From: Candidatus Vogelbacteria bacterium RIFOXYD1_FULL_44_32
GTDB lineage: Bacteria > Patescibacteriota > Minisyncoccia > Phycocordibacterales > XYD1-FULL-46-19
Assembly (NCBI GenBank): GCA_001823065.1
Contig: MHTJ01000003.1
Location: forward strand, 253,283 to 317,282
DNA length: 64,000 nt
Direction of reading: 5' to 3'
A program made the translations under genes and the position numbers. Under the pieces are notes generated by a model, which worked only from the letters and a program-made list of their open reading frames with translations, did no database searches and had not been told where the DNA came from. The stretch's first letter is position 1; the number at the start of each line of letters is the position of its first letter. Shown here one piece after another: positions 2,223 through 53,004 of the stretch.

Positions 2223-2339
2223 ATGAAAGTTCGGTCAACAATCAAGCAACGTTGTCCACAGTGCAAGATGGTAAAGCGTCGTGGTCATCTATACATAATT
2301 TGTAAGAATAAGCCTCGACATAAGCAGAAGCAGGCTTAA
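2223..2339 (+). CDS. rpmJ: 50S ribosomal protein L36
   Basis: 38-aa ORF MKVRSTIKQRCPQCKMVKRRGHLYIICKNKPRHKQKQA with CxxC...C...H zinc-ribbon pattern. It is too short for the ORF track and was found by reading the infA-rpsM spacer. Confidence 0.9.
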   Translation: MKVRSTIKQRCPQCKMVKRRGHLYIICKNKPRHKQKQA

Positions 2340-2352
2340 TTTAATTTATTAT

Positions 2353-2733
2353 ATGTTACGTATTTCTGGTATTACAATTCCTGATAATAAAAGACTAGAG
2401 ATCGGTCTGACCGCTATTTATGGTATTGGGCGTAATCGCGCTAAATCCATTCTTAATAATCTCAAAATTGAACACGGTCGCCGTCCCGCCGAACTTTCAG
2501 CTGGTGAGGAAAACGATATTCGTAAAGCTGTCGAAATATTTAAAATTGAGGGTGACCTAAAACGAGAGGTTAGTGGCAATATTAAAAGATTGAAGGATAT
2601 TAAATCCTATGTCGGCATTCGACACACTCGTGGGTTACCAGTCAGAGGCCAAAGAACCAAAACCAATGCGCGGACTCGTAAAGGTCCTAAAAAGACTATG
2701 GGTTCAGGTAAAAAGAAAGTTGATAAAAAATAA
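2353..2733 (+). CDS. rpsM: 30S ribosomal protein S13
   Basis: 126 aa with a lysine/arginine-rich C-terminal tail. The family match (MLRISGITIPDNKRLEIGLTAIYGIGRNRA) is unambiguous. Confidence 0.95.
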   Translation: MLRISGITIPDNKRLEIGLTAIYGIGRNRAKSILNNLKIEHGRRPAELSAGEENDIRKAVEIFKIEGDLKREVSGNIKRLKDIKSYVGIRHTRGLPVRGQRTKTNARTRKGPKKTMGSGKKKVDKK

Positions 2734-2740
2734 TTAATTT

Positions 2741-3172
2741 ATGGGAAAAAAACGAATTATTAAGCAAGGCGGTCATGATTCAGGGGGAGCAAAAACCCGG
2801 GCTCTTGGTCGAGTGTCAAAAAAGAAAATTGAGCTGGGGATTTTGCACGTCAAGGCCACCTACAACAATACGGCCCTCCTCCTCACCGATGCCACAGGCA
2901 ATGCCATTTTGGCCTCATCGAGTGGGGCGCTAGGTTACAAAGGTTCTAAGAAAGGAACGCCCTACGCGGCTGGTAAAGTCGGTGAGCTCCTAGCCGAAAA
3001 GGCTCAAGCGATGGGTTTAAAGGAGGTTGATGTGATTATTAGGGGTGTCGGTTCGGGTCGAGAATCATCCGTTCGGTCTTTTATTGCTAAAGGAATAAAT
3101 ATTTTGTCGATAAAAGATAAAACACCGGTGCCGTTTAATGGCCCGAAGGCTCCGAAGCCAAGACGGGTTTAA
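2741..3172 (+). CDS. rpsK: 30S ribosomal protein S11
   Basis: 143 aa. Conserved S11 core GILHVKATYNNTALLLTDATGN...GYKGSKKGTPYAA. Confidence 0.95.
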   Translation: MGKKRIIKQGGHDSGGAKTRALGRVSKKKIELGILHVKATYNNTALLLTDATGNAILASSSGALGYKGSKKGTPYAAGKVGELLAEKAQAMGLKEVDVIIRGVGSGRESSVRSFIAKGINILSIKDKTPVPFNGPKAPKPRRV

Positions 3173-3196
3173 TTTTAATTTAATTTTTTTAATACT

Positions 3197-3817
3197 ATGG
3201 GACTTCGCATTGGACCAAAATATAAAATTGCTCGCCGGTTAGAAGAAAAAATATTTTCTAAAACCCAGACGACTAAATTTGCCATCTCTGGTTCGGAAAA
3301 AAGCGGTAAACAAGGTGGTCGGAAAAAAACTGTTAGTGAATACGGCCGACAGCTTTTAGAGAAGCAAAAAGCTAAATACACTTATGGTGTCAATGAAAGG
3401 CAGTTTTCAAATTATGTCAAAGAGGTGAGGGGTCTTAAAAATATTAATACCTCATCTGAAATGTTTAGACTACTTGAGTCCCGCTTAGATAATATTGTCT
3501 TTCGGCTTGGTTTAGCTAACTCACGCCTTTTGTCGCGGCAGATGGTCTCCCATGGGCATATTCTCGTCAATGGTCGGCGGGTCACAGTACCTTCGGCGCG
3601 GGTGCGAATCGGCGACAAAATTTCGGTCCGAGTTCAAAGCCAGCAAAAAGGAATGTTTGCCAGTTTAGCAGAAAGATTAAAAACCTATACCACACCAAAT
3701 TGGCTAATATTTGATGATAAGAGTATGGCCGGTGAAGTGAAGGGTAGTCCGGAGTATGGAGGAAACGAATCCAATCTTAATTTCGCTTCAATCCTGGAGT
3801 TTTACAGCCGGGTTTAA
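3197..3817 (+). CDS. rpsD: 30S ribosomal protein S4
   Basis: 206 aa. S4 N-terminal region and S4 RNA-binding domain (LESRLDNIVFRLGLANSRLLSRQMVSHGHILVNGRRV). Confidence 0.95.
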   Translation: MGLRIGPKYKIARRLEEKIFSKTQTTKFAISGSEKSGKQGGRKKTVSEYGRQLLEKQKAKYTYGVNERQFSNYVKEVRGLKNINTSSEMFRLLESRLDNIVFRLGLANSRLLSRQMVSHGHILVNGRRVTVPSARVRIGDKISVRVQSQQKGMFASLAERLKTYTTPNWLIFDDKSMAGEVKGSPEYGGNESNLNFASILEFYSRV

Positions 3818-3859
3818 AACGATTTATTTTATTTATTAGTATAGCCTAGAAACCCAACT

Positions 3860-4843
3860 ATGCCTGATTTTAATATCATTTTGCCATCCAAACCAATCAT
3901 CGTCTCCGAAGGGGACAATTTTGGGGTGTATGAAATTGAGGGCCTTTATCCCGGATACGGTCATACCTTAGGTAACTCTCTGCGCCGGATTATTTTGTCC
4001 TCCCTACCCGGCTTTGCTGTTACAGCAGTAAAAATAGACGGGGCCAATCATGAGTTTGCGACCCTCGATGGTGTTAAAGAAGATGTGATTTCGATTGTGC
4101 TAAATCTCAAAAAATTAAGATTTAAGGTAGTAGGTGATGATAAAAAAATTGTTACTATTGACTGTTCTGGTATTAAGGAAGTAACCGCCGGTGATATTAA
4201 AACCAGTGGTGATGTTGAAATAGTCAATCCAGATTTGTATATTGCTTCAGTAACTGAAAAGACCGCTAGCCTAAAGATTGAATTAACTCTAGAAAAAGGG
4301 ATGGGGTATGTGCCGAAAGAAGTGCTCCAAAAAGAAAAAGTAGATATCGGAACTATTGCGCTTGATGCTATCTTTACACCTATTCGTCGCGCTAGTTATG
4401 AGGTTGAACAGATGCGGGTTGGTAATCGTACTGATTATAATAAACTTAGGGTTTCGATTGAAACTAATGGCGATGTTTCCCCTCGGGAGGCACTTGAACA
4501 ATCTATTGCTATTATGATCAATCAGCTTAAAGCAATTGTTGGCTTTAAAGAGGACATCGAAGATTTAATAGTGGAAAATGCTGGCACCAATTCTGATGTG
4601 GAAAAGGAAATGGAGGGTGCCCTAAATTCCGAACCGGAAGATGAGGATGTACTAAAGACAAGAATTGACGATTTGAACCTTTCCGGCCGAACTCAAAAAG
4701 CCCTAGCCAATGCTAGTATTCGAACTGTCGGTGGGTTGATTCGCAAAAAAGAAAATGATTTACTAGACATCGAAGGTTTGGGGGATAAGGGTGTACAGGA
4801 GATAAAACGGGCCTTATCAAACTTTGGCATTTTGCTTAAATAA
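3860..4843 (+). CDS. rpoA: DNA-directed RNA polymerase subunit alpha
   Basis: 327 aa. N-terminal dimerisation domain (GVYEIEGLYPGYGHTLGNSLRRIILSSLPGFAV) and C-terminal alpha-CTD helix-hairpin-helix (DLNLSGRTQKALANASIRTVGGL). Confidence 0.95.
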   Translation: MPDFNIILPSKPIIVSEGDNFGVYEIEGLYPGYGHTLGNSLRRIILSSLPGFAVTAVKIDGANHEFATLDGVKEDVISIVLNLKKLRFKVVGDDKKIVTIDCSGIKEVTAGDIKTSGDVEIVNPDLYIASVTEKTASLKIELTLEKGMGYVPKEVLQKEKVDIGTIALDAIFTPIRRASYEVEQMRVGNRTDYNKLRVSIETNGDVSPREALEQSIAIMINQLKAIVGFKEDIEDLIVENAGTNSDVEKEMEGALNSEPEDEDVLKTRIDDLNLSGRTQKALANASIRTVGGLIRKKENDLLDIEGLGDKGVQEIKRALSNFGILLK

Positions 4844-4851
4844 TCCTAAAT

Positions 4852-5202
4852 ATGCAACACCACGGACATACCAGTAAATTAGGGCGAAAAAGCGGCCCGC
4901 GCGAGGCGCTTATTCGTGGTCTCGCTAAAAGTCTAATCGAAAAAGGTCGGATCAAAACGACCGAAGCCAGAGCCAAAGCTTTACGACCATATGTTGAAAA
5001 ATTGGTGACCATAGCCAAAAATAATACAGTCACCGCCAAACGAACTGTGACCGCCCGTTTGGGTGGGGAGGTAAAACTAGAAAAATTGTTCAATGAAATT
5101 GGCCCCCGCTATAAAGAAAGAGCGGGGGGCTTTACCCGTATTATAAAAATGCCCGCCCGCGCTGGTGACGCTAGCCCGCAAGCTATTATTGAATTTGTCT
5201 AA
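4852..5202 (+). CDS. rplQ: 50S ribosomal protein L17
   Basis: 116 aa. Pattern RKLGRKSGPREALIRGLAKSLIEKGRIKTTEARAKALRPYVEKL is typical of L17. Confidence 0.95.
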   Translation: MQHHGHTSKLGRKSGPREALIRGLAKSLIEKGRIKTTEARAKALRPYVEKLVTIAKNNTVTAKRTVTARLGGEVKLEKLFNEIGPRYKERAGGFTRIIKMPARAGDASPQAIIEFV

Positions 5203-5210
5203 ATTATTAT

Positions 5211-5555
5211 ATGGAACACATTCTTGACGCTAGCAATATTAGTTTAGGTCGAATCGCGAGTTCGGCGGCAGTCCTTTTGCGTGGCAAAAACACCCCGGCC
5301 TTCGAGCGGTACGAAAAACCCACTAATAAAGTCAAAATAATAAATGCCTCCAAAATGACAGTGACGGGGCGTAAAATGTCGGATAAAATTTATCTAACTC
5401 ACAGTGGCTATCCCGGTGGCCAAAAGGCTCGCACCTTGACCCAGGTTATTGCCAAAAAAGGTGTTGACGAGGCGATTCGCCAAGCTATTTATGGTATGTT
5501 GCCAGATAATAAGTTGCGAGCAATTATGATGAAAAATTTAGTTATTACTGAATAA
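5211..5555 (+). CDS. rplM: 50S ribosomal protein L13
   Basis: 114 aa with L13 family similarity. The usual rplM-rpsI pair follows directly after rplQ. Confidence 0.93.
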   Translation: MEHILDASNISLGRIASSAAVLLRGKNTPAFERYEKPTNKVKIINASKMTVTGRKMSDKIYLTHSGYPGGQKARTLTQVIAKKGVDEAIRQAIYGMLPDNKLRAIMMKNLVITE

Positions 5556-5560
5556 ACCTT

Positions 5561-5968
5561 ATGGCTACTGAAACTACTAAAAATAAATATATTGAAGCCG
5601 TGGGGCGCCGAAAGACGGCGGTGGTTCGCGTCCGACTTACTGCGGCTAGTAAAAGTTCGTACATTGTAAATGGTAAACCATTGACTACTTATTTTCCGGT
5701 CAAAGAATTGCAGGTGATTGTGCAAAAACCTATGATTGATGCCGCGACCAAGGATTATAGTGTGTCTATTGTAGCCAGAGGTGGGGGTATTCATGCTCAA
5801 GCCGAGGGCGCAGCCATGGGAATAGCTCGGGCCCTAACCAAAGCCGATGCCCTATTACGTTTACCACTTAAAAAAGCTGGCCATCTTACCCGTGACCCGC
5901 GCGCCAAAGAACGCCGTAAATTTGGCCTTAAGAAAGCAAGAAAGGCTCCCCAGTGGAGCAAACGGTAG
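5561..5968 (+). CDS. rpsI: 30S ribosomal protein S9
   Basis: 135 aa. GRRKTAVVRVRL...GGGIHAQAEGAAMGIARAL, with a C-terminal KR-rich tail ending in R. Confidence 0.95.
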   Translation: MATETTKNKYIEAVGRRKTAVVRVRLTAASKSSYIVNGKPLTTYFPVKELQVIVQKPMIDAATKDYSVSIVARGGGIHAQAEGAAMGIARALTKADALLRLPLKKAGHLTRDPRAKERRKFGLKKARKAPQWSKR

Positions 5969-6045
5969 TCCGTGCTCCACTGGGGCTAGGAAAAGGGTCG
6001 GGAAGACTACGAGTTTTCCCGTGGAGGAAGGATTGGGAAAACCGA

Positions 6046-6125
6046 GGGTTTCCCAGACCGCAAGCGGTGCAAGCGGTAGTCCTTTTTTCAATCAAAAAAT
6101 GCCGACTTTGCTGGTCGGTATTTTT
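6046..6125 (+). terminator. tandem hairpins with U-runs downstream of rpsI (intrinsic terminator GCCGAC-TTTGCT-GGTCGG + T-run at 6101-6125)
   Basis: Second hairpin GCCGACTTTGCTGGTCGG is followed by TATTTTT. The first GC-rich hairpin (CCGCAAGCGG...) is followed by TTTTTT at 6084-6089. Confidence 0.6.
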
Positions 6126-6174
6126 AAATTATGAGTCCTTGACCTCTGGCTCTAATATTGTAATATAACCACAT

Positions 6175-6768
6175 ATGGATACTGAACAAACATCATTTCG
6201 CGATGAAGTATCGCGCAACGAGCCAAATAATGAATGGCGCAGTTTAGTCATAACCGCAATCATCGGCATCATTCTTGGCTTTATTATTGGTTATTTTGTG
6301 TTTATTAAAAATATTTTTAACCCCTTGGCCAACAACCCAGCCAATACCGCTACATCAACCTTAGAAGATCTAACTACTAAAACGAGTACTTCGACCGCCA
6401 CAACCAAAACCAATGGGCTGATGACAGTGGAAGTACCAGACCAAACACCTAGTTTGCGCACCAAGATTACCAAACTTGTTTTAAGCGAGGGGGCATGGGT
6501 TGTCACCTTTAGTTCAACCGAAGATATGAGCCGACCTAATTTGATTATTGGCGCCCAATATTTTAACCCGGGGACCTATACCGATATTACCTCATATTTG
6601 GCCCAAGGTTTAGTTGCTGGTGAAAAATATTTTGTGGCATTGTATCAAGACGACGCCGCTGGTTCAACCGAACATGTTTTTGATAGTGTGAAGGATAAGC
6701 CATTTACCAAGGGTGCTTATTGGATAATGGATTCGTTTGAGGTTACAGCTGTTGGAGCACGAGGTTAA
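6175..6768 (+). CDS. hypothetical membrane-anchored protein (N-terminal TM helix, Thr/Ser-rich linker, soluble domain)
   Basis: 197-aa ORF. TM segment LVITAIIGIILGFIIGYFVFI. No recognisable family. Confidence 0.55.
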   Translation: MDTEQTSFRDEVSRNEPNNEWRSLVITAIIGIILGFIIGYFVFIKNIFNPLANNPANTATSTLEDLTTKTSTSTATTKTNGLMTVEVPDQTPSLRTKITKLVLSEGAWVVTFSSTEDMSRPNLIIGAQYFNPGTYTDITSYLAQGLVAGEKYFVALYQDDAAGSTEHVFDSVKDKPFTKGAYWIMDSFEVTAVGARG

Positions 6769-6814
6769 CTAGCTGAATATATTTAGTTTTGCCCTTTAGC
6801 AAATAATTTTTGTT

Positions 6815-7378
6815 GTGATGATTAAAAAGCCCTCAACAGATAGCCATAATAGCGATGACTTTACCTTTGAAGATGAGGAAGCCAGCGCTGATATTGCCAA
6901 AAAACTAAAACAGCTACGGGACAAACTAAAAAACAGCGAGGAAGAAAAGATGACCAACCTGGCCGGTTGGCAGAGAGCCCAAGCCGACTACTCTAATTTA
7001 AAAGCCAATAGTGAAAAAGAGCGACAGGTACTAGCGGAAATAATTAAAGCCGGGCTAATTGATGATTTTATTCCGCTGGCCGACAGCTTTGCTATGGCGA
7101 TGGCCAACCACGAGGCTTGGGAGGCCGTGCCGGCCAATTGGCGCAAAGGAGTTGAACATATTTACAGTCAATTAGGAAATATTTTAGCTAATCAAGGTGT
7201 AGAAGTTATTGACCCGATTGGTAAAATATTTGACCCGATTTGGCATGAGTCGGTTGGGCTAGTGACCACCACTAAACCAGACGAGGATCATATGGTTTTA
7301 GAAGTTATTAAGAAGGGTTATCGTTTAGGTGAGAGGATTATTCGCCCCGCGCAGGTCAAAATAGGGGAGTACAAGTAA
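6815..7378 (+). CDS. grpE: nucleotide exchange factor GrpE
   Basis: 187 aa. Coiled-coil N-terminus then a GrpE C-terminal beta-domain (LADSFAMAMAN...GVEVIDPIGKIFDPIWHESV). It sits immediately upstream of dnaK. Confidence 0.9.
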   Translation: MMIKKPSTDSHNSDDFTFEDEEASADIAKKLKQLRDKLKNSEEEKMTNLAGWQRAQADYSNLKANSEKERQVLAEIIKAGLIDDFIPLADSFAMAMANHEAWEAVPANWRKGVEHIYSQLGNILANQGVEVIDPIGKIFDPIWHESVGLVTTTKPDEDHMVLEVIKKGYRLGERIIRPAQVKIGEYK

Positions 7379-7430
7379 AATATGTTAAAATTAAATTCAG
7401 TCATTAATAATCTAAATTAAATAATACGCT

Positions 7431-9320
7431 ATGGCAAAAATACTTGGCATTGATTTGGGAACTACCAACTCCGCAATGGCGTACGTGGAGGGTGGCCAAC
7501 CAAAAATTATCGAAAATAGCGAGGGGGCGCGAACGACGCCTTCGATTGTCGCTCAATCAAAAACCGGTGAACGCCTCGCCGGCCTTTTGGCCAAACGCCA
7601 AGCTGTGACCAACCCACAAAACACTATTTATGGGGTCAAGCGCCTTATGGGTCACAAATTTGAAGACCCCCATGTGCAAAAAGACAAGGGGCTGGTTTCT
7701 TATACTATTGAACGCTCCGACGATGGTGGGGTCAAAGTGGGTATGGGCGACAAAAAATACCGGCCCGAGGAAATTTCGGCCATGATCTTGTCTAAGTTAA
7801 AGCGTGATGCTGAAGCTCATCTCGGTGAAAAAATCGAGGAGGCGGTTATTACCGTGCCAGCTTATTTTGATGACTCACAACGCAAAGCCACTAAAGATGC
7901 CGGTGAAATCGCTGGTTTCAAGGTCCGCCGGATTATCAACGAACCTACTGCCGCCGCACTTGCCTACGGCCTCAACAAAAAGAAAGATGAAAAAGTTGTA
8001 GTTTATGACTTTGGGGGTGGGACTTTTGATGTATCAGTCCTTGATATTACTGGCGAAGGTGGTGAGCAATCGATCGAAGTAAAGTCAACCGACGGTGATT
8101 CGCATATGGGCGGTGAAGATATTGACCAAAAAATTATTGAATGGCTATTGCACGAATTTAAGGCCGAAACCGCTCTCGACATTTCCAAAGACCACCTCGC
8201 TTTACAACGACTCAAAGAAGCCGCCGAAAAAGCTAAACACGAGCTTTCTAGTGCCGTAGATTCGGAAATTAATATTCCCTTTATTACATCCGATGTCTCT
8301 GGCCCCCAGCATCTAGTCAAAAAAATGACCAGAGCCAAGCTCGAAGAAATCGCTGATGAATTTATCAAAAAATCAATTGAGATTACTAAGCGAGCGGTAG
8401 ACGCATCGGGCTATAAACTTGGTGATATCAACGAGATTATTTTAGTCGGTGGTCAAACACGGATGCCTGGTATTCAGGAGGCGGTGAAAAATCTGTTTGG
8501 CAAAGAGCCAAACCGCTCCATTAACCCCGACGAAGTGGTGGCGATTGGCGCCGCCGTGCAGGCTGGTATTTTCCAAGGTGATGTGAAAGATGTGCTTCTA
8601 CTTGATGTCACCCCGCTTTCTTTGGGGATTGAAACTCTCGGTGGAGTCGCCACTAAGCTGATTGACCGCAATACTACTATTCCCACCTCGCGCAGCCAGA
8701 CTTTCTCCACCGCCGCCGACAACCAGACTTCGGTCGAGATTCATATTGTCCAAGGCGAAAGGGAGATGGCCGCCGATAACAAGACATTGGGGCGCTTTAT
8801 TTTAGACGGTATTCCACCCTCACCTCGCGGTCTACCGCAAGTTGAGGTAAGCTTTGATATCGACGCCAATGGTATTTTGTCAGTCAAAGCCAAGGACAAA
8901 ACTTCTGGTAAAGAACAGTCTATTCGCATTGAGGCCCAATCCTCATTATCTAAAGAGGATATTGAAAAAATGAAGGCCGAGGCACAAACACATGCCGACG
9001 AAGATAAGAAAAAACGCGAAATTGTTGATGCTAAAAATACCGCCGAGCAGATGATTTACACCGCCGAAAAATCACTTCGTGATGCAGGAGATAAAATCAC
9101 AGCCGAAATAAAGGCGGAGGTTGAGGAAAAAATAAAAAATCTTCGTGAGGCCAAAGATAAAGAAGACTTAGAATTGATAAAAAATACCACCCAAGAACTT
9201 TCCACCGCGATGATGAAAATTGGCGAAGCGATGGCTAAAGCGGGTGAGGCCGATAAAACTGCGCCAGAAAACAAGGAGGGGGAGGTGCGGGAGGCGGAGA
9301 CGGAAGAGAAGAAAGATTGA
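7431..9320 (+). CDS. dnaK: molecular chaperone DnaK (Hsp70)
   Basis: 629 aa. Hsp70 signatures [20 protein letters not shown] and [15 protein letters not shown], plus an EEVD-like acidic C-terminus. Confidence 0.97.
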
Positions 9321-10579: not shown

Positions 10580-10582
10580 AAG

Positions 10583-10609
10583 TTTGATTTTATTTTGATT
10601 CGGTATAAT
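10583..10609 (+). promoter_or_regulatory. putative sigma70-type promoter (TTGATT-N14-TATAAT) driving a non-coding transcript
   Basis: TATAAT at 10604-10609; TTGATT at 10584-10589 (short spacer). Immediately after the dnaJ stop. Confidence 0.4.
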
Positions 10610-10615
10610 ATATCG

Positions 10616-10945
10616 CCTAGGTGGATGTAGTTAGGTTATGTGGCCAGCTACAGGATATCCACCTTCTTGAGTTCTTTTTTGTGCGGAGGATTTGCTGTGG
10701 GTAATACTTCCTAGCTCCTAGGGCTTGCTTACCGGTTGGTAAGCCCGGATCACGACACAGGTCTTTTGCTACCTTGTGCGTGATCTATTTTAACCGGCGT
10801 CAAAGAGGGCGCATCAAGCCCCAGGGTAGTCTGTTGCTGATTTAAAGCCACCTCACCTCAATGAGCTCTGGACTACTTCAAAACAGTAACCACCCCACCA
10901 TCTTGCCCGAGAGGGAGGATTTGATTCCTCCCCCGGGCCTTTTTA
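10616..10945 (+). ncRNA. candidate structured non-coding RNA of unknown family (about 330 nt) ending in an intrinsic terminator
   Basis: No ORF of 60 aa or more on either strand. Multiple nested hairpins (GGTGGAT...ATCCACC, GCTTACCGGTTGGTAAGC, GATCACG...CGTGATC). Terminator GCCCGAGAGGGAGGA-TTTGA-TTCCTCCCCCGGGC + TTTTT at 10905-10945. Confidence 0.4.
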
Positions 10946-11108
10946 TTTGACAAAAAATTTAGGTATAGTATAGATATAATATGAATCAGTTTTATCACAA
11001 GCGAGATATGGCCACTCTATCCGTCATCGACAACGGCGATTTTTGCCTTTTTCCTAGCTGTGATAATTCTAAAACTATCTAAATAACCCCTCAATCCTGA
11101 TTTAGAAT

Positions 11109-11147
11109 CACCTCAGCTGGGCAAAAGCACCACTGAGGTGATTTTGT
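11109..11147 (+). terminator. intrinsic terminator (CACCTCAG ... CTGAGGTG + ATTTTGTT) just upstream of the GNAT gene
   Basis: 8-bp stem, 16-nt loop, T-run. Confidence 0.55.
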
Positions 11148-11178
11148 TGCAGTTTGGTCTTTGACAAGGAGATTAATC

Positions 11179-22246: not shown

Positions 22247-23374
22247 ATGAAAATTGCACTGACCGGTGGGGGAACAGGGGGACATTTTTATCCAATTATT
22301 GCTGTAGCCGAGGAACTACGAGATGTTATTTTTGACCAGAAATTAATAGGCACCAAATATTATTTTTTTTCCGACCACCCCTACAGTCCGAAACTACTAG
22401 CGGACAATGAATTAATATTTATCAAAATACCAGCTGGTAAGTGGCGCCGCTATTTTTCGCTCAAAAACTTTACCGACCTTTTTGTATTAGCTTTCGGTTT
22501 TATTGTGGCCCTCTGGAAAATGTTTTGGATTTATCCCGATGTTCTTTTTTCTAAAGGTGGCTATGCTAGTATACCCGCCGTTATGGCCGCCCGAATCTTG
22601 GGCATCCCAATATTTATTCATGAGTCCGACTCACACCCCGGTCGAGCCAATCTTTGGGCGAGCAAGTTTGCTACCCGAGTTGCCCTATCCTACCCCGATG
22701 CCACAACTTTTTTCCCGCCAGAAAAAACCGCCGTGGTTGGCAACCCCCTAAGGCGCGAGATCATGAATCCAGTGCCCGAAGGTGCTAAACGATTTTTGAA
22801 ATTAGAAGAAAATCTACCAATACTTTTTGTCTTGGGGGGTTCCCTCGGTTCTCAGTCTATCAACAATGCTCTCCTAGAAACTCTGCCCGATTTGGTCCAA
22901 AAATATCAGATTATTCACCAGACGGGACGACAAAATTATGATGATGTAGTGGCGAGAGCTGGTGTTATTTTAGCCGGTGATGCTTATCAGGGACATTATC
23001 AAGCCTTTCCCTATTTAGAAAGTTTGGCAATGCGAATGGCGGCTGGTGTCGCCGACTTAGTGATTTCCCGCGCTGGTTCAGCTATATTTGAAATTGCTCA
23101 TTGGGGTATTCCCGCCATAATTATTCCCATCCCTGAAACTGTCAGCCACGACCAGCGCTCCAATGCTTTTGCTTATGCCCGCACAGGGGGAGCAGTGGTA
23201 ATTGAGGAAAATAATCTTGCTCCATCTATTTTAATCGCTGAAATAGATCGTATTTTAAATAATCCGGAGCTAAAAACAAAAATGAGAACCGCGACCAAAA
23301 GCTTTGCCCAACCCGAAGCTGGTCATAAAATTGCCACCGAAATTGTGCAGATGGCCCTCCAACATGAAAGCTAA
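22247..23374 (+). CDS. murG: undecaprenyldiphospho-muramoylpentapeptide beta-N-acetylglucosaminyltransferase
   Basis: 375 aa. N-terminal GGGTGGHFYP motif (LTGGGTGGHFYPIIAVAEEL). Confidence 0.93.
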   Translation: MKIALTGGGTGGHFYPIIAVAEELRDVIFDQKLIGTKYYFFSDHPYSPKLLADNELIFIKIPAGKWRRYFSLKNFTDLFVLAFGFIVALWKMFWIYPDVLFSKGGYASIPAVMAARILGIPIFIHESDSHPGRANLWASKFATRVALSYPDATTFFPPEKTAVVGNPLRREIMNPVPEGAKRFLKLEENLPILFVLGGSLGSQSINNALLETLPDLVQKYQIIHQTGRQNYDDVVARAGVILAGDAYQGHYQAFPYLESLAMRMAAGVADLVISRAGSAIFEIAHWGIPAIIIPIPETVSHDQRSNAFAYARTGGAVVIEENNLAPSILIAEIDRILNNPELKTKMRTATKSFAQPEAGHKIATEIVQMALQHES

Positions 23375-26795: not shown

Positions 26796-27257
26796 ATGGC
26801 AAGCCTGATAGCTTTCTCGAATATTACTCCCACCGTCGCTGAAGGTCCGGTTTCGACCAGACCCGACGCCCAGGTGGCAGTTGTGCAAATAGTCCAAACA
26901 CCAGCAGTAAGTAAGACTGACAAAAATAATTTGATTCCTGAGCTAATTAATCAAAAAAGCAAGGAACAAGCAGTTGACCCAAACCTGGCCCAAGCTATTG
27001 CATTCTGTGAAAGCACCTACCAGCAATTTAATGCTGATAGTGGGACAGTCCTCCGCGGAATTCATAATCCGCTCGATGTGGGTATTTTCCAAATCAATGA
27101 AAAATACCACTTGGAAAAAAGCCAAACCCTCGGTTTCGATATTTATACGGCTGAAGGAAATATCGACTATGCTTTGTGGCTCATGAGTCACGAAGGCGCC
27201 GGCCATTGGAAATGGAGCAAGCCGTGCTGGTCCCAAAAAATAAACCCTGCTGTTTAA
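26796..27257 (+). CDS. lysozyme-like / lytic transglycosylase-like protein
   Basis: 153 aa. Motifs AFCESTYQQFN ... DVGIFQINEKYH resemble the catalytic Glu and GLMQI-type motifs of SLT/goose-type lysozyme folds. Confidence 0.55.
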   Translation: MASLIAFSNITPTVAEGPVSTRPDAQVAVVQIVQTPAVSKTDKNNLIPELINQKSKEQAVDPNLAQAIAFCESTYQQFNADSGTVLRGIHNPLDVGIFQINEKYHLEKSQTLGFDIYTAEGNIDYALWLMSHEGAGHWKWSKPCWSQKINPAV

Positions 27258-27311
27258 ACCCAGCGGGGTTTATTTTATAAAAATTATCCACAAGGGGAGT
27301 CAGGCACAATT

Positions 27312-27320
27312 TGGTATAAT
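27312..27320 (+). promoter_or_regulatory. extended -10 element TGgTATAAT
   Basis: TGGTATAAT at 27312-27320, upstream of a 41-aa hydrophobic ORF. Confidence 0.4.
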
Positions 27321-27372
27321 AGAGGAGTCGCAATTTACGCGATTTTAATTTTTCAAATTTCCGCCTCACCAT

Positions 27373-27498
27373 ATGGAGCAACTGCAAAGTGATCTGGTTG
27401 AACTTTTTTGGCACCTACCAGCTATTATGCTCTGGGTGCTTTATTTATTATTTAAAAAAGCTAAAACTACCCTGATCAAGGTTAAAGTTGAGGAATAA
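27373..27498 (+). CDS. candidate 41-aa small membrane protein
   Basis: MEQLQSDLVELFWHLPAIMLWVLYLLFKKAKTTLIKVKVEE. No Shine-Dalgarno. Confidence 0.25.
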   Translation: MEQLQSDLVELFWHLPAIMLWVLYLLFKKAKTTLIKVKVEE

Positions 27499-27634
27499 TA
27501 TAAATATATTAATTAAATATTTAAAAAGTAATTTGACTCCCCTGATTTTTGATGAAAAAAGGGGAGGTCTAGCTATTTGGACCATACCAGCCAGCCAAAG
27601 GGATTTTTTATTATAAAGAGACAAAGGTGAGAGG

Positions 27635-27826
27635 ATGACGGGTACATTGGTGCCAGTCCAATACCTAACTTTCGTCTCCGGCGATTTTAGAGGCCAAGAA
27701 ATTAGTGCTCTCAGATTGATTATTAAGATGAGGGCGGAACTGGTTTATTATATAGGCCGTGTCGCAAAAGGTATATTGTGCGACACTATATTCACCAAAC
27801 CTCTGACCTTGACATATACCTATTAA
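27635..27826 (+). CDS. hypothetical small protein (63 aa)
   Basis: ORF-track entry. RBS-like AAGGTGAGAGG precedes the ATG. Lies inside the gene-poor region. Confidence 0.3.
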   Translation: MTGTLVPVQYLTFVSGDFRGQEISALRLIIKMRAELVYYIGRVAKGILCDTIFTKPLTLTYTY

Positions 27827-27921
27827 TATTAAAATTGGGTGGGTTTTTTGTCTCTCCTCTCCCCTTGTTTAACTCACTAATAATTTAAAATATACAAAAT
27901 TATAAATATTATTTCCTCCCT

Positions 27922-27960
27922 CTCCCCCGCGGGTCCACTGGGGGAGTCACTTGCTTTTTT
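27922..27960 (+). terminator. hairpin CTCCCCC-GCGGGTCCACT-GGGGGAG followed by a T-run (GCTTTTTT)
   Basis: One of three hairpins in this region that share the CTCCCC/GGGGAG stem. Confidence 0.45.
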
Positions 27961-28047
27961 ACTAAATTTGTGGAAAATTAAAGGTTGGTGCGCACCTCGA
28001 AAAACCTAACTCTCCTCCCCCAGCGGGAGGAATAGGAGACGGTGACT

Positions 28048-28221
28048 ATGAAGAGCTTTGGCGACAGGCGGTCTCGTTTTTCTCATGAATACCGTTCCTG
28101 CGGAGGGACCAATCCTCCGCCTGCGCTCGTGCACTCCGTGCACATGCTCATGCACAGCAAAATGTTGCCGTGCCAAAAGCGACATCCGAATCCGGAGATT
28201 GAAACCTCCGAAATCTGATTT
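28048..28221 (+). CDS. candidate 57-aa His/Cys-rich peptide inside a GC-rich, highly structured block (could alternatively be non-coding)
   Basis: AGGAGA lies 11 nt upstream of the ATG. The block contains hairpins GCGGAGG...CCTCCGC, GTGCAC-TCC-GTGCAC and CGAAATC-TG-ATTTCG, and ends in the terminator at 28246-28276. Confidence 0.25.
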
Positions 28222-28245
28222 CGCTTTTCGTTCCTGAGTCCCAAG

Positions 28246-28276
28246 CCCCGCAAGCGCACCGCGGGGCTTTTTTTTG
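28246..28276 (+). terminator. intrinsic terminator CCCCGC-AAGCGCAC-CGCGGGG + T9
   Basis: Canonical GC stem with a long U-tract. Confidence 0.7.
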
Positions 28277-28398
28277 TGATAATATAATTTGGATCACCTA
28301 CAAACCCAATGGCAGGATTTCAGCCCTCTTGTCAGCTGGTAAAAGTACGGCCTTTTGAAGCCTGTCGCCAGAAAGACCGTTCCTAGTAGGTGGTCTTT

Positions 28399-40554: not shown

Positions 40555-40575
40555 CGTCAGAGTCCACCCGTTCCC

Positions 40576-40610
40576 ATGTCCCCCGAAGAATCGGGGGACA
40601 TTTTTCATTT
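40576..40610 (+). terminator. intrinsic terminator ATGTCCCCCG-AAGAAT-CGGGGGACAT + TTTTT
   Basis: Follows the lipoprotein stop. Confidence 0.75.
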
Positions 40611-40651
40611 TAGAATTTTTTAGGTTAGCATATTAAACCTTAAACTATTTG

Positions 40652-40723
40652 TGACCCTACAGAGAATCGAACTCTGATTTAAACCTTGAGAAGGCCTTGT
40701 CCTAACCGTTAGACGATAGGGCC
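40652..40723 (-). tRNA. tRNA-Glu (anticodon CUC)
   Basis: Cloverleaf folded by hand: acceptor GGCCCTA/TAGGGTC, D-arm GTCT-AACGGTTA-GGAC, anticodon stem AGGCC/GGTTT with loop TTCTCAA, T-arm CAGAG-TTCGATT-CTCTG, discriminator A. CCA is not encoded. Confidence 0.85.
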
Positions 40724-40863
40724 AAATAATTGTTAACATCGTGAGTATAGCGAAAAAAATATTTAAAGACAATTGTATTCTATTGTCTACCATAATCCCT
40801 CGATTAGCCGCCTTTTACTTTTACTACCCAATCCGCTAATATTTTTATAGAAAGGAGGCCCCT

Positions 40864-41046
40864 ATGCGCCAAAGATCAGACTTAGAGCTCTCCGCCGAGA
40901 GTGGAGAGTTCCGGCCGTTCATGACCGCCGAGGAATACTACGACTTTCAGGACAGGTTTCAAAAACAGGTTGGCCCCGAGCTCGACCGCCACGCTGAAGC
41001 CAGGCAAGCCAGTGAGAAAGTGGCGAGAGAACATTATGTCCACTAA
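40864..41046 (+). CDS. hypothetical 60-aa acidic protein whose 3' end is duplicated about 760 bp downstream
   Basis: Strong RBS AAAGGAGG. GC-rich. Confidence 0.5.
   Translation: MRQRSDLELSAESGEFRPFMTAEEYYDFQDRFQKQVGPELDRHAEARQASEKVAREHYVH
40974..41039 (+). repeat. direct repeat copy 1 (66 bp; also the 3' coding end of the 60-aa ORF)
   Basis: 63/66 identical to 41738-41803. Confidence 0.85.
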
Positions 41047-41125
41047 CCTCTGTTCGCCCCCTACCCGCGTCTGCTCCCCCGAGCCGGCGCGGATTTTTTA
41101 TTGGGACAGGAGCGCAAACAAGTTT

Positions 41126-50490: not shown

Positions 50491-51375
50491 CTAAGCAGTT
50501 AATTGTTTATATAATAATTTATCACTTTTTGCAATTTTTAGTGTCACTAGGTCGAATTTCTCGGCTAGACTATCTTGACGGTTATTGAAGCGAAAGGTTA
50601 TTTCATCAATGTAGCGCTGTAAGTGCTTTTTACTCATTGAGTGATAGGTACCGTGATAATTACGCTTAAACAAAGCCCAGAAGCTCTCGATTGAGTTGGT
50701 GTGGACATTGCCACGGACATACTGCTTGCGACTGTGTTTAATTGAATCGTGCTTAAAGCCAATCCGAACTAGTTTACGATAAACACCAGCGTCATCGGTC
50801 ATTAGATAGGCTTTAGGATTAACATTTTTTGTTACCGCATTAAGAACGGTGTGTGTCTGACGGTCTGGGATTTGGAAAGCTCGAAGTTTACCGCCTCGCT
50901 CTGTCATTCCCATAACAGCCGACTTTTTTGAGAAGCCGTGTTTGCGATTATGCTTTCCACCTAGATAGGTTTCGTCAATTTCTACAGTACCAATCAGTTT
51001 ACCTTTATTTTGCTTTAGAGCTTCACGAATACGCATATCCATAAACCAAGCGGTCTTTTGGGTTACGCCGACTTGCTCGGATAAGTAAATTGAAGAAACT
51101 CCCTTTTTAGAAGTTGTCAGAAGATAAATGGCAATAAACCATTTTTGCATCGGGATTTTGCTTTCACCAAAGAGGGTGCCTGTCTTAACAGTGAAGTCTC
51201 GTTTACAGCTATCACAACGAAAGCGTTTACCGTCTTTGAAACGGAAAATCTTATTGTGCTTACAGTGAGGGCAATAGTCCCCACCAGCAAAGCGCACATC
51301 CTCAAAGTGCTTTCGACAGACTTCCTCGTTGTGGAAGTGGGATATAAATTCGGCTAAGGTCTTAAAGTTTGTCAT
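50491..51375 (-). CDS. IS1595-family (ISXO2-like) DDE transposase
   Basis: 294 aa. N-terminal zinc ribbon CPHCKHNKIFRF...FRCDSCKRDF, then IPMQKWFIAIYLLTTSKKGVSSIYLSEQVGVTQKTAWFMDMRIREA and the DDE core (TVEIDETYLGGK...). Confidence 0.92.
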   Translation of the reverse strand: MTNFKTLAEFISHFHNEEVCRKHFEDVRFAGGDYCPHCKHNKIFRFKDGKRFRCDSCKRDFTVKTGTLFGESKIPMQKWFIAIYLLTTSKKGVSSIYLSEQVGVTQKTAWFMDMRIREALKQNKGKLIGTVEIDETYLGGKHNRKHGFSKKSAVMGMTERGGKLRAFQIPDRQTHTVLNAVTKNVNPKAYLMTDDAGVYRKLVRIGFKHDSIKHSRKQYVRGNVHTNSIESFWALFKRNYHGTYHSMSKKHLQRYIDEITFRFNNRQDSLAEKFDLVTLKIAKSDKLLYKQLTA

Positions 51376-51814
51376 ATTTATAGCTTATACCTATTCGATA
51401 GGGTTGTCAAGTTCCTTAAATAAATAGGGGTAGGTTGACAGCTTTTCTAGATTTGGTATTATTTACGGTAGCCTTTCACAATAAGTGGGACTGGTACTCC
51501 CCAATAAGAAGCAAACCAAAGACAGAAACCTGTCTCAAGTGTGGCGTGGGTATCTAAAAGTACCATACGCCTAGTGCGTATTCCCGAAAGGGTTTGCTCA
51601 CCTACGTCACACTTGGAACGGGTTTTTTCTGTAAACGAAAACACCCCCGTGAGGGGGCGGTAAGGTGACTGGAAGCCGGAAACTATCAAAATGGGGATAA
51701 GGGAGAGACAGACTCCCAAAACTTGTACAAGGTCCCAAGTCCTACTGCAGTAGGGCGAACTAAAGCTTCGAAGCGTGTCACTTTAATTCCTCCTCCTTGG
51801 GGGTGTTTTTGTAA

Positions 51815-51900
51815 GCGCCGATGACGAAAATGGTATCCGTCCTCGTTCTGTAAACGAGGGTTCCTCCCAGAACTTACGGGTTCGAATCCCGTTCGACGCA
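51815..51900 (+). tRNA. class II tRNA-like element (long variable arm), possibly a pseudo-tRNA, inside the IS
   Basis: Canonical T-arm ACGGG-TTCGAAT-CCCGT. Acceptor GCGCCGA/TCGACGC has one C-A mismatch. 3-bp D-stem with an 11-nt D-loop as in tRNA-Leu/Ser/Tyr. 17-nt variable arm. The anticodon loop TCTGTAA has C at position 33, so identity is unclear. Confidence 0.3.
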
Positions 51901-52085
51901 CAGAGTATTGACGAAAAGCGTCATCTGTATCCTAGCAGGATATGGGGACTTTGTCAATATTCAAAGTATAACACTTGGGGAGTTGTCCACGCCAACATTT
52001 TTATCAATTTTTCTGTTGATAAGGTGTACAGGGGCTATAATGGCAGCTTTTTATTATGGTAGGCGTAGTATGTTATAGTTAAGAA

Positions 52086-52244
52086 ATGACAATTATACCC
52101 TATATTATATTGGCAGTTTTGCTTTTTGGTTTGTTTAATGCCTACAGAGATTTTAAGAGTCAAATCGGATGGCTACATAGAAGGTTGGAGAAATTGGAGA
52201 AGAAAGTTGGTATTAGTGAGAAGGAAACTCAAGATTTACTCTAG
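52086..52244 (+). CDS. IS-internal small membrane peptide (52 aa)
   Basis: MTIIPYIILAVLLFGLFNAY... N-terminal TM helix and a charged C-terminus. Confidence 0.35.
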   Translation: MTIIPYIILAVLLFGLFNAYRDFKSQIGWLHRRLEKLEKKVGISEKETQDLL

Positions 52245-52293
52245 GGTAACGGATATAAATTTTAGAAAACATTAAAAGGTATAAAAATAAAAA

Positions 52294-52458
52294 ATGACAT
52301 TAATAATTATATTAGCTTTGGCTGTAATAATCTTTGGCCTTTTTGTTATAAGTAAGCAGTTAGGTGATACTTATAAATTACTTGACGGAAAGTTTAATAA
52401 TAATAAAGACGAGTCAGAAATTGTTGGTAAAAAGCATAAAATTGATTTAGAAGCCTAG
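52294..52458 (+). CDS. IS-internal small membrane peptide (54 aa), paralogous in architecture to 52086-52244
   Basis: MTLIIILALAVIIFGLFVIS... Its stop lies inside the right terminal repeat. Confidence 0.35.
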   Translation: MTLIIILALAVIIFGLFVISKQLGDTYKLLDGKFNNNKDESEIVGKKHKIDLEA

Positions 52459-52595
52459 GGTAATTAAGTATATAGTTCCCTTTTAATTTGTATTTTTCCC
52501 AACTTAGAGAGCTTCCTTCCTTTCCGACCACTGTAAAGGGATAGTAAAAATCAAGGGGTGAATAAACAGGCCGGTGGTCAATGATATTTTTTCTA

Positions 52596-52991
52596 CTAAT
52601 ATTTAGCCACCTTAGATTTTAGGTTAAACTGAAATATTATCTCAAATAAAGATAAAGCTATGGGCAGAATAATGTATGGCATCCATAATATATAATATAC
52701 AAAATCAGTTAAAAGTAGATAAATAAGCCAAATTAAATCAATAATAAATAAAATGTTCAATAAATAAGGCACTAGAGCGATATTTAATTTTTTAAAAATA
52801 CATATTGATATGTAAATTCTATTTGCAAACAAAAGAATAAAAACACCTACCCACAAGAAAAAGCGTAGTGGTACCGAATTTATATTAGCAAAACTACTAA
52901 TAAATAAAAATAAAAAAGAAAAATATAAAAAAATGACAAAATAAGCAAGATTAGAAATTATAAGATAATCTTTATTTATTATATTTATCAT
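52596..52991 (-). CDS. hypothetical polytopic membrane protein in an extremely AT-rich (about 22% GC) block
   Basis: 131 aa, very hydrophobic (Ile/Leu/Phe-rich). Lies between the IS and lysS. Confidence 0.4.
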   Translation of the reverse strand: MINIINKDYLIISNLAYFVIFLYFSFLFLFISSFANINSVPLRFFLWVGVFILLFANRIYISICIFKKLNIALVPYLLNILFIIDLIWLIYLLLTDFVYYILWMPYIILPIALSLFEIIFQFNLKSKVAKY

Positions 52992-53004
52992 AAAAATTTA
53001 TTTT

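Follow-up and report, generated by a model that had tools for sequence, protein, structure and literature searches.

A 28-bp dif-like site and converging RGGGNAG motifs in a gene-poor gap, very probably a replication-terminus junction, of a Patescibacteria chromosome

The DNA analysed here (the window) is a stretch of 64,000 nucleotides from Candidatus Vogelbacteria bacterium RIFOXYD1_FULL_44_32 (contig MHTJ01000003.1, positions 253,283 to 317,282), and the element in question is a gene-poor gap at window positions 27258-28398. This gap is very probably a replication-terminus junction of a Patescibacteria chromosome, with the Xer recombination site dif and with converging FtsK-orienting motifs. 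Its central feature is a 28-bp imperfect palindrome around which both the gene strand and the polarity of a short motif switch. This feature was absent from an earlier reading of the same letters, made without database searches and called here the sequence-only reading. The palindrome is most likely the place where joined sister chromosomes are cut apart. The site and its parts are as follows.

27759-27786, no strand assigned, dif-like site, a 28-bp imperfect palindrome made up of GTGTCGCAAAA, GGTATA and TTGTGCGACAC
27759-27769, left arm, GTGTCGCAAAA
27770-27775, central region, GGTATA
27776-27786, right arm, TTGTGCGACAC

This 11-6-11 arrangement is the layout of dif in both size and arms. By our own count, 18 of the 28 positions are identical to those of the E. 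coli dif sequence, GGTGCGCATAATGTATATTATGTTAAAT (PMC3025954), among them the TATA centre and the inner bases of the arms. Only one copy was found in the 64 kb of the window at up to 3 mismatches, and each metagenome locus was likewise observed to hold one. Metagenomes were scanned with a query made of the centre and right arm only (AAGRTATATTGTGCGAC), and at least 120 Patescibacteria contigs were found to carry the site, as a single copy in each. The left arm, which lies outside the query, is about 80% conserved among the matches. The consensus of 118 distinct sites reads ATGTCGYAAAA (left arm), GRTATA (centre) and TTGTGCGACRT (right arm). Neither a dif site nor an FtsK-orienting motif of Patescibacteria was found described in our full-text literature searches.

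The gap is 1,141 bp long and was found to be the largest in the window that is free of open reading frames (ORFs) in a greedy ORF map, where other gaps are mostly shorter than 100 bp; the gene-poor region of 1.1 kb reported by the sequence-only reading is therefore borne out. Genes are on the + strand up to 27257 and mostly on the - strand from 28399, and the cumulative GC (guanine and cytosine) skew of the window turns down at about 28 kb. The relatives of the flanking genes all come from Patescibacteria metagenome-assembled genomes. Loci for comparison with the gap were fetched through the neighbouring 157-residue protein on the right flank. The segment 27532-28393 could be aligned to one of these loci, L003 (nhmmer E = 3e-61), in which the neighbouring protein is 57% identical, and the core at 27760-27790 shows 83-96% identity in eight more Patescibacteria genomes in which the neighbouring proteins are just 35-45% identical. 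The closest relative is L140, with a neighbouring protein that is 92% identical.

The position of the site was examined in the 44 loci where each flank is 1.5 kb or longer. The site is intergenic in 41 of them; in the other three, L011, L030 and L038, a long ORF overlaps it. Convergent nearest genes occur in 35 loci and divergent ones in none, and GC skew is higher to the left of the site than to the right in 38. Gene orientation and skew in these loci, together with the strand switch and skew turn of the window, give the terminus location that is expected of dif. The gene neighbourhoods of the site were observed to vary; for example, FtsQ is found beside a type-IV-coupling-like ATPase in one case and an M23 peptidase beside glutamate racemase in another. 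Since the neighbourhoods differ between loci, conserved synteny alone does not explain the pattern.

The GGGGAG and CTCCCC sequences that recur in the gap are copies of a polar motif, RGGGNAG, which shares the core of the FtsK-orienting sequence GGGNAGGG. To count its polarity, each flank was read in the direction of the site in 124 loci (793 kb), with the following results.

AGGGGAG, 190 toward the site and 13 away
AAGGGGAG, 58 toward and 0 away
AGGGAAG, 158 toward and 17 away
AGGGGA, 443 toward and 57 away

The overall ratio of G to C in the toward reading is only 52:48. A scan of each motif position gave R-G-G-G-N-A-G. The E. coli octamers known as KOPS (FtsK-orienting polar sequences), GGGNAGGG, were found 127 times toward the site and 11 times away, and FtsK-orienting motifs are therefore observed to converge on the site as they do on dif. 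AGGGGAG is about 5-fold over-represented on the toward strand (190 observed against about 37 expected from an order-1 Markov model), has a skew of 94%, occurs once per 3.9 kb and reaches its top density within 500 bp of the site. These values lie within those published for the prediction of KOPS, which are a skew of 90% or more within the dif region, at least one copy per 40 kb and over-representation (PMC3384302).

In genes transcribed away from the site, the toward:away ratio is 21:1 for AGGGGAG and 29:0 for AGGGAAG, whereas the coding-linked control motifs flip in such counter-oriented genes (9:30 for GAAGAAG and 22:38 for TGGAAAA). Within the window, counter-oriented genes hold GGGGA at 12:1. 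Because the AGGGGAG skew persists in counter-oriented genes while the controls flip, the polarity goes with the site rather than with transcription, and coding-strand bias was ruled out as the source of the GGGGAG skew. The motif thus follows the replication arm, as KOPS do. AGGGGAG is found in the window on the + strand at 7363, 24526, 26075, 26412, 27293 and 27560, and on the - strand at 27859, 30211, 34970 and 37770, all of which face the site, with one further - strand copy at 27537 that faces away. Apart from this last copy, the + copies lie to the left and the - copies to the right, and the polarity therefore flips exactly at the site (27771; 10 toward, 1 away). The copy nearest to the left end of the gap is given here as an example.

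27293-27299, + strand, polar motif AGGGGAG, facing the site (the permissive orientation)

Taken together, a working model of the terminus can be proposed. The site at 27759-27786 would be the chromosome dimer resolution site, dif, where Xer would bind and carry out catalysis. RGGGNAG, which faces dif on both chromosome arms, would direct the FtsK DNA pump there. Near dif, some motif copies are paired with an inverted copy as hairpins, probably terminators by which convergent transcription is kept from the site. In this lineage the gap would owe its extra length to two small lineage-specific protein genes with promoter-like and terminator elements of their own.

The site was compared with known recombination systems. 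It resembles XerCD/dif of E. coli and B. subtilis in its length of 28 bp, divided into two inverted arms of 11 bp and a centre of 6 bp (PMC3025954; PMC5357621), and has the inner bases (..AA of the left arm, ..TATA of the centre and TT.TG.. of the right arm) in common with it. Further likenesses are the terminus position at a switch of GC skew and gene orientation, one arm that is more conserved than the other, and exploitation by integrating elements that have no detectable integrase (PMC5357621). It differs from XerCD/dif in its distinct outer arms (GTCGY and GCGAC in Patescibacteria), in arms that are much nearer to a perfect palindrome (the reverse complement of the left arm is TTTTRCGACAT and the right arm is TTGTGCGACRT), and in a left arm that is shifted by one base in some of the Patescibacteria sites. 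The relative symmetry of the arms is shared with XerS/difSL and XerH/difH. A recombinase gene beside the site is a possible hallmark of single-recombinase modules (PMC5357621), and such a gene also adjoins the site in some Patescibacteria contigs, at 300 bp in L084. However, difSL has 31 bp and an 11-bp centre whereas the Patescibacteria site has 28 bp and a 6-bp centre, XerS and XerH have about 355 residues whereas the L084 recombinase has 297 and the XerC/D domain pair, and there is no adjacent recombinase gene in the window or in most loci.

The motif was compared with the family of FtsK- and SpoIIIE-orienting polar sequences (KOPS/SRS), represented by GGGNAGGG, GAGAAGGG and GAAGAAG. It is like KOPS in being G-rich, skewed to dif by at least 90%, over-represented, denser near dif and independent of gene orientation (criteria of PMC3384302), and GGGNAG, the core of RGGGNAG, is the first six bases of E. 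coli KOPS. It is unlike KOPS in that the best-skewed Patescibacteria word, a putative FtsK target, is a heptamer with a 5' purine (RGGGNAG) and not an octamer, and in that copies near dif often pair with an inverted copy as hairpins.

The paired copies in the gap, and the terminators and pyrimidine tracts associated with the region, are located as follows.

27535-27569, + strand, hairpin H1, GACTCCCC...GGGGAGGTC, -15.2 kcal/mol, z = -2.85
27852-27865, - strand, pyrimidine tract that reads AAGGGGAGAGGAGAG on this strand, a polar motif copy facing the site
27916-27960, + strand, hairpin H2, CTCCCCC, loop and GGGGGAG followed by a T-run, terminator-like
28010-28038, + strand, pyrimidine tract, hairpin and AGGAG ribosome-binding site, identical in sequence in L003
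27237-27276, + strand, terminator hairpin following the SLT-like gene 26796-27257, flanked by a preceding A-run and a trailing T-run
28243-28275, + strand, intrinsic terminator of a 56-residue ORF, -17.3 kcal/mol, z = -2.2

Two exact CTCCCC...GGGGAG hairpins were found in the 64 kb (27537-27566 and 27922-27946), both of them in the gap, against an expectation of 0.05 by shuffling; none of 100 shuffles reached two. The sequence-only reading had listed three hairpins on this stem; the first two are exact, but the third (28014-28030, found in the centroid fold) has the related and different stem CCTCCC/GGGAGG. The U-run that it placed after the second hairpin corresponds to the T-run behind H2. 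In H1, the outer arm at 27537-27543 (AGGGGAG on the - strand) faces away from the site and the inner arm at 27560-27566 (+) faces it; in H2, the inner arm at 27922-27928 (GGGGGAG on the - strand) faces the site and the outer arm at 27940-27946 faces away. The stem sequence of H1 is kept in L003 with another loop, and the CTCCCC/GGGGAG stem of H2 is kept in L003 and L141, also with different loops. Among the dif loci, 10 hairpins of this type occur in 856 kb, and 8 of the 10 are within 600 bp of the site against 1.8 expected, whereas generic GC-rich hairpins are just 1.3-fold enriched near the site. We infer that the RGGGNAG-built hairpins H1 and H2 act as terminators.

Pyrimidine tracts were observed at 27852, 27915/6 and 28010. 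The window has 19 matches to a CTCYCCYCYCCCC-like pattern against 7.7 expected, and the gap holds 3 of the 4 closest such matches (up to 2 mismatches, best first). The tracts noted by the sequence-only reading are thus present and enriched, but its comparison with anti-Shine-Dalgarno elements is not supported; they are better read as reverse complements of RGGGNAG and are the toward-facing motif copies to the right of the site. The segment 28010-28038, for example, includes GGGGGAG on the - strand at 28015-28021, facing the site, in addition to the CCTCCC/GGGAGG hairpin and AGGAG at 28034-28038.

The hairpin at 27237-27276 is an inverted repeat of 16 nt with 94% complementarity and was terminator-like in the scan. 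The strong terminator described in the right half of the gap also proved real by its fold energy; it is identical in L140, and in L003 one of its stem pairs shows a compensatory change from G-C to A-T.

The site was also found in viral sequences, where 63 IMG/VR contigs (L144-L206) match the site query. Five of these (L164, L169, L181, L194 and L198) carry two direct copies that are 4.5-5.9 kb apart. The two copies share 17-21 bp only, after which exact identity ends, and their flanks are about 30% identical; these contigs are therefore not concatemers, and a concatemer artefact was ruled out by this flank divergence. One copy has a full left arm and lies beside host genes (MurG, FtsQ), and the other has a degenerate left arm. 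Among the five elements, annotation covers that of L164 only (2234-7562), which encodes a rolling-circle replication initiator (PHROG 3419, 2e-14; PF23343, 2e-10) and a weak Zot-like ATPase. No tyrosine recombinase was found in the five contigs by tblastn with an E. coli XerD query sequence. Several IMG/VR contigs of 4-6 kb hold a single copy with a degenerate arm (cttgacaaaatac...), as expected for free attP. In L101, L134 and L135 an extra copy of the left arm (aATGTCGCAaaag / TGTGTCGCATAAG) was noticed 13-25 nt to the left of the site, which may be a scar of past integration and excision.

By comparison, the configuration of the two-copy elements appears to be that of integrative mobile elements exploiting Xer (IMEX), which use host Xer recombination (PMC5357621). 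As with CTX-phi, VGJ-phi, TLC and GGI, elements of 4.5-5.9 kb are bounded by a full dif on one side and by a copy whose one arm is degenerate on the other, they are free of an integrase by tblastn, and the one that is annotated encodes a rolling-circle Rep. The window itself is unlike these loci as it holds neither such an element nor a second site. No described IMEX in Patescibacteria hosts was found in the searchable literature.

A gene for a 297-residue Xer-type recombinase (PF00589 and PF02899) was found 300 bp from the site in L084 (1467-2677), and a partial ORF near the site in L052 has the same Pfam domain pair. Four more metagenome loci have recombinase-like tblastn matches near the site. 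An Xer-type recombinase gene was thus noticed 0.2-1.4 kb from the site in a minority of contigs (L084, L043, L049, L052, L120 and L139), and this arrangement of recombinase and site resembles the modules of single-recombinase systems.

A broader reading would join these observations. The Patescibacteria dif would be near-palindromic and possibly served by a single Xer that is sometimes encoded beside it, the back-to-back RGGGNAG hairpins would perhaps be functional as FtsK loading or stalling points or as insulators, and the site would be an integration target of small rolling-circle (inovirus-like) viruses and hence a host tag. We regard this combination as possible yet rather unlikely to hold in full.

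The remainder of the gap is occupied by small ORFs and by DNA that is specific to the lineage.

27312-27320, + strand, extended -10-like sequence TGGTATAAT, upstream of a 41-residue ORF
27373-27498, + strand, 41-residue hydrophobic ORF, called as a gene in L002
27635-27826, + strand, 63-residue ORF that overlaps the dif-like site
27951-27994, + strand, clade-specific block of TTGCTT, 16 nt and GAAAAT (promoter-like, a putative function), then GGAAAATTAAAGGTTGGTGCGCA
28048-28218, + strand, 56-residue Cys/His-rich orphan ORF (MKSFGDRR...KRHPNPEIETSEI), with an alternative start at 28042
28288-28396, + strand, structured segment of about 110 nt closed by GGATCACCTAC/GTAGGTGGTC, -36.3 kcal/mol, z = -2.9

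The extended -10 sequence of the sequence-only reading is present as TGGTATAAT, and a promoter role is predicted for it. The C-terminal 26 residues of the 41-residue ORF are identical at 13 of 26 positions to an ORF at the contig end of L003 (PAIMLW..LL..KAK..L.....E) with the same stop; aside from this match, the homologue search found no relative beyond the same genome. The ORF is probably a real lineage-specific small membrane protein.

The His/Cys-rich ORF, given as 57 residues by the sequence-only reading, is present at 28042/28048-28218 (57/58 residues). Its 56-residue form stays in frame in both L003 and L140, where its indels (3, 9, 9 and 15 nt) are all multiples of 3. Its KRHPNPEI segment is encoded with 5 synonymous differences, and differences are in excess at third codon positions (25/17/17 overall and 10/3/3 in the C-terminal part, 28150-28200). 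No homologue was found beyond the same genome in a word-indexed database or with HMMER against 1.84 billion representatives. This ORF is probably a real small protein gene.

The 63-residue reading frame proposed by the sequence-only reading exists but is not a gene. Compared with L003, conservation is confined to the residues that the 28-bp site encodes, while the start and the rest differ, and the differences (26/31/23) show no codon periodicity; it was ruled out as a gene on these two grounds. As for the small RNAs or peptides that were suggested for the region, the 41- and 56-residue ORFs look real, but there is no match to an Rfam family. The Rfam 15 covariance models gave no family in the gap, either at gathering scores or at E <= 10, where only sub-threshold terminator-like hits appeared. 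ARAGORN found no tRNA or tmRNA in the gap, and Pfam had no match to any of its small ORFs. The GC-rich block is present as well, with a GC content that reaches 0.53-0.57 over 27925-28224, against 0.435 for the whole window.

The segment 27950-28039 has 84% identity to L003. Within it, a promoter-like block and leader (27951-28038) are shared by the window, L003 and L141 alone, and the block lies upstream of a small ORF in L141. We noticed that GGAAAATAGAAAGnTGGTGCRCA occurs at 27972-27994 of the window, in L003 and at about 1707-1735 of L141 (read on the - strand). In these three genomes of the clade it lies some 200 bp from dif, and the small ORFs downstream of it are unlike one another. The sequence forms an ORF start (MENRKLV) in L003 and L141, but a stop breaks it in the window. 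It was rejected as a feature common to dif regions, since it was not found in other dif loci.

The structured segment at 28288-28396 ends in a hairpin preceded by an A-run and followed by a T-run, and adjoins the stop of the 157-residue gene. It is about 70% conserved in L003 and largely replaced in L140, and is at best a weak small-RNA candidate. A perfect complement of 11 nt between 28059-28069 (codons 4-8 of the 56-residue ORF) and 28360-28370 was set aside, about 0.2 such pairs being expected by chance in 1.2 kb by our estimate. L003 keeps 8 pairs of this complement, 3 of them G-U.

Elsewhere in the window, four further gaps of 550-700 bp are free of ORFs (10580-11160, 22752-23303, 40555-41125 and 51902-52595), and the one at 40.6 kb holds a tRNA-Glu. 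A transposase of the IS1595 family (PF12762, PF12760) was found at 50491-51375 on the - strand, beside a local reversal of GC skew at 51000-53000; the skew is +0.21 at 52-53 kb in a surrounding region that is otherwise negative, and this suggests a recent insertion or inversion. ARAGORN also gave a tRNA-Thr(TGT) of 87 nt at 51815-51901 (+), which is unusually long for a type I tRNA and was not reported by the Rfam gathering scan.

Several points weigh against the assignment of the gap to a terminus with dif. The single-copy status of the site is known over 64 kb and within each fetched locus only. About 12% of the 118 sites (the variant is also seen in L004, L008, L009, L012 and L017) have one A fewer in the left arm, which gives a 27-bp variant whose left arm lies one base nearer the centre, and this is unusual with a fixed central region. 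As the search pattern fixed both the centre and the right arm, the apparent invariance of these parts in the 118 sites is in part circular; loci found through the neighbouring protein show 1-3 differences in these parts. Two motif copies near the site face away from it, and the polar motif could serve the leading strand in some other way, for example as a Chi-like sequence. A tblastn search of 1.5 Mb of fetched loci with an E. coli gamma-domain query gave no FtsK gamma domain, and the window was found to have no Xer or FtsK genes, its ten candidate ORFs being other proteins in Pfam.

Other explanations of the palindrome were also considered. It could be a transcribed RNA hairpin (a small RNA, terminator or regulatory stem-loop) in a cluster of small or cis-regulatory RNAs such as the sequence-only reading had proposed. 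The palindrome does fold as a hairpin (-13 kcal/mol, z = -2.45), terminator-like hairpins come after the site in some related loci, and the 28288-28396 segment folds well too. However, the outer arm positions 2 and 27 do not covary (Fisher p = 0.8), the left arm of L008 and L017 no longer pairs and yet the centre and right arm are retained, and the central region, which would be the loop, is conserved as strongly as the stem. The duplication made by integrated elements is limited to the centre and right arm, and the polar motif converges on the site from both strands. With no Rfam match and with 28288-28396 replaced in the closest relative, this RNA explanation is extremely unlikely, and the hairpin was rejected on the lack of covariation and the asymmetric conservation of the arms. 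A protein site linked to the terminus and used by something other than Xer (a phage-integrase attachment, replication-termination or terminus-organising site) would also suit the location and the palindromic arms, which fit several DNA-binding proteins, and integrase-like proteins do occur in the site-bearing viral contigs L149, L163, L173 and L193. We consider this very unlikely, as dif has the same 11-6-11 layout and the same inner arm bases (TTnTG/AA), the five two-copy contigs have no integrase by tblastn, a recombinase with the XerC/D domain pair lies beside the site in L084, each locus has one site unlike the multiple copies of terminus-organising sites, and the known FtsK-orienting octamer GGGNAGGG converges on it.

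The DNA to the right of the site (27787-28398), with the GC-rich orphan ORF and the conserved leader, might instead be the decayed remnant of an element that integrated at dif, and the sequence-only reading had also mentioned remnants of a foreign element. Small elements do integrate at the site in related bacteria, the block has a GC content of 53-57% against 43.5% for the window, the 56-residue ORF is without a homologue in protein searches, and 28288-28396 differs in the closest relative. The second dif-like site that would mark such a remnant was not found at 26.5-29.5 kb (+/-1.5 kb), where the best candidate has 8 mismatches in 21, which is the mode of the shuffles and not beyond chance. 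The block is also retained in L003, in spite of a flanking protein that is only 57% identical there, with a signature of purifying selection on the ORF, and no remnants of replication or structural genes were seen. A remnant is therefore unlikely.

Patescibacteria (the candidate phyla radiation, CPR) form a very large and mostly uncultured share of bacterial diversity, and little is known of their chromosome biology. With the assignment to a terminus and dif region, the site and motifs of the gap are now largely explained, and an odd gene-poor stretch becomes an explained landmark. Side results of moderate interest are a dif consensus that spans the phylum, the polar motif RGGGNAG and viruses with dif as their integration site. 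The dif motif could tag small site-integrating viruses to their Patescibacteria hosts. The dif consensus together with RGGGNAG would allow the replication terminus of metagenome-assembled genomes to be recognised by a simple sequence test, an aid to assembly checking, contig orientation and estimates of replication rate. Furthermore, the logic of FtsK, KOPS and Xer, and even the GGGNAG core, would extend to the Patescibacteria radiation.

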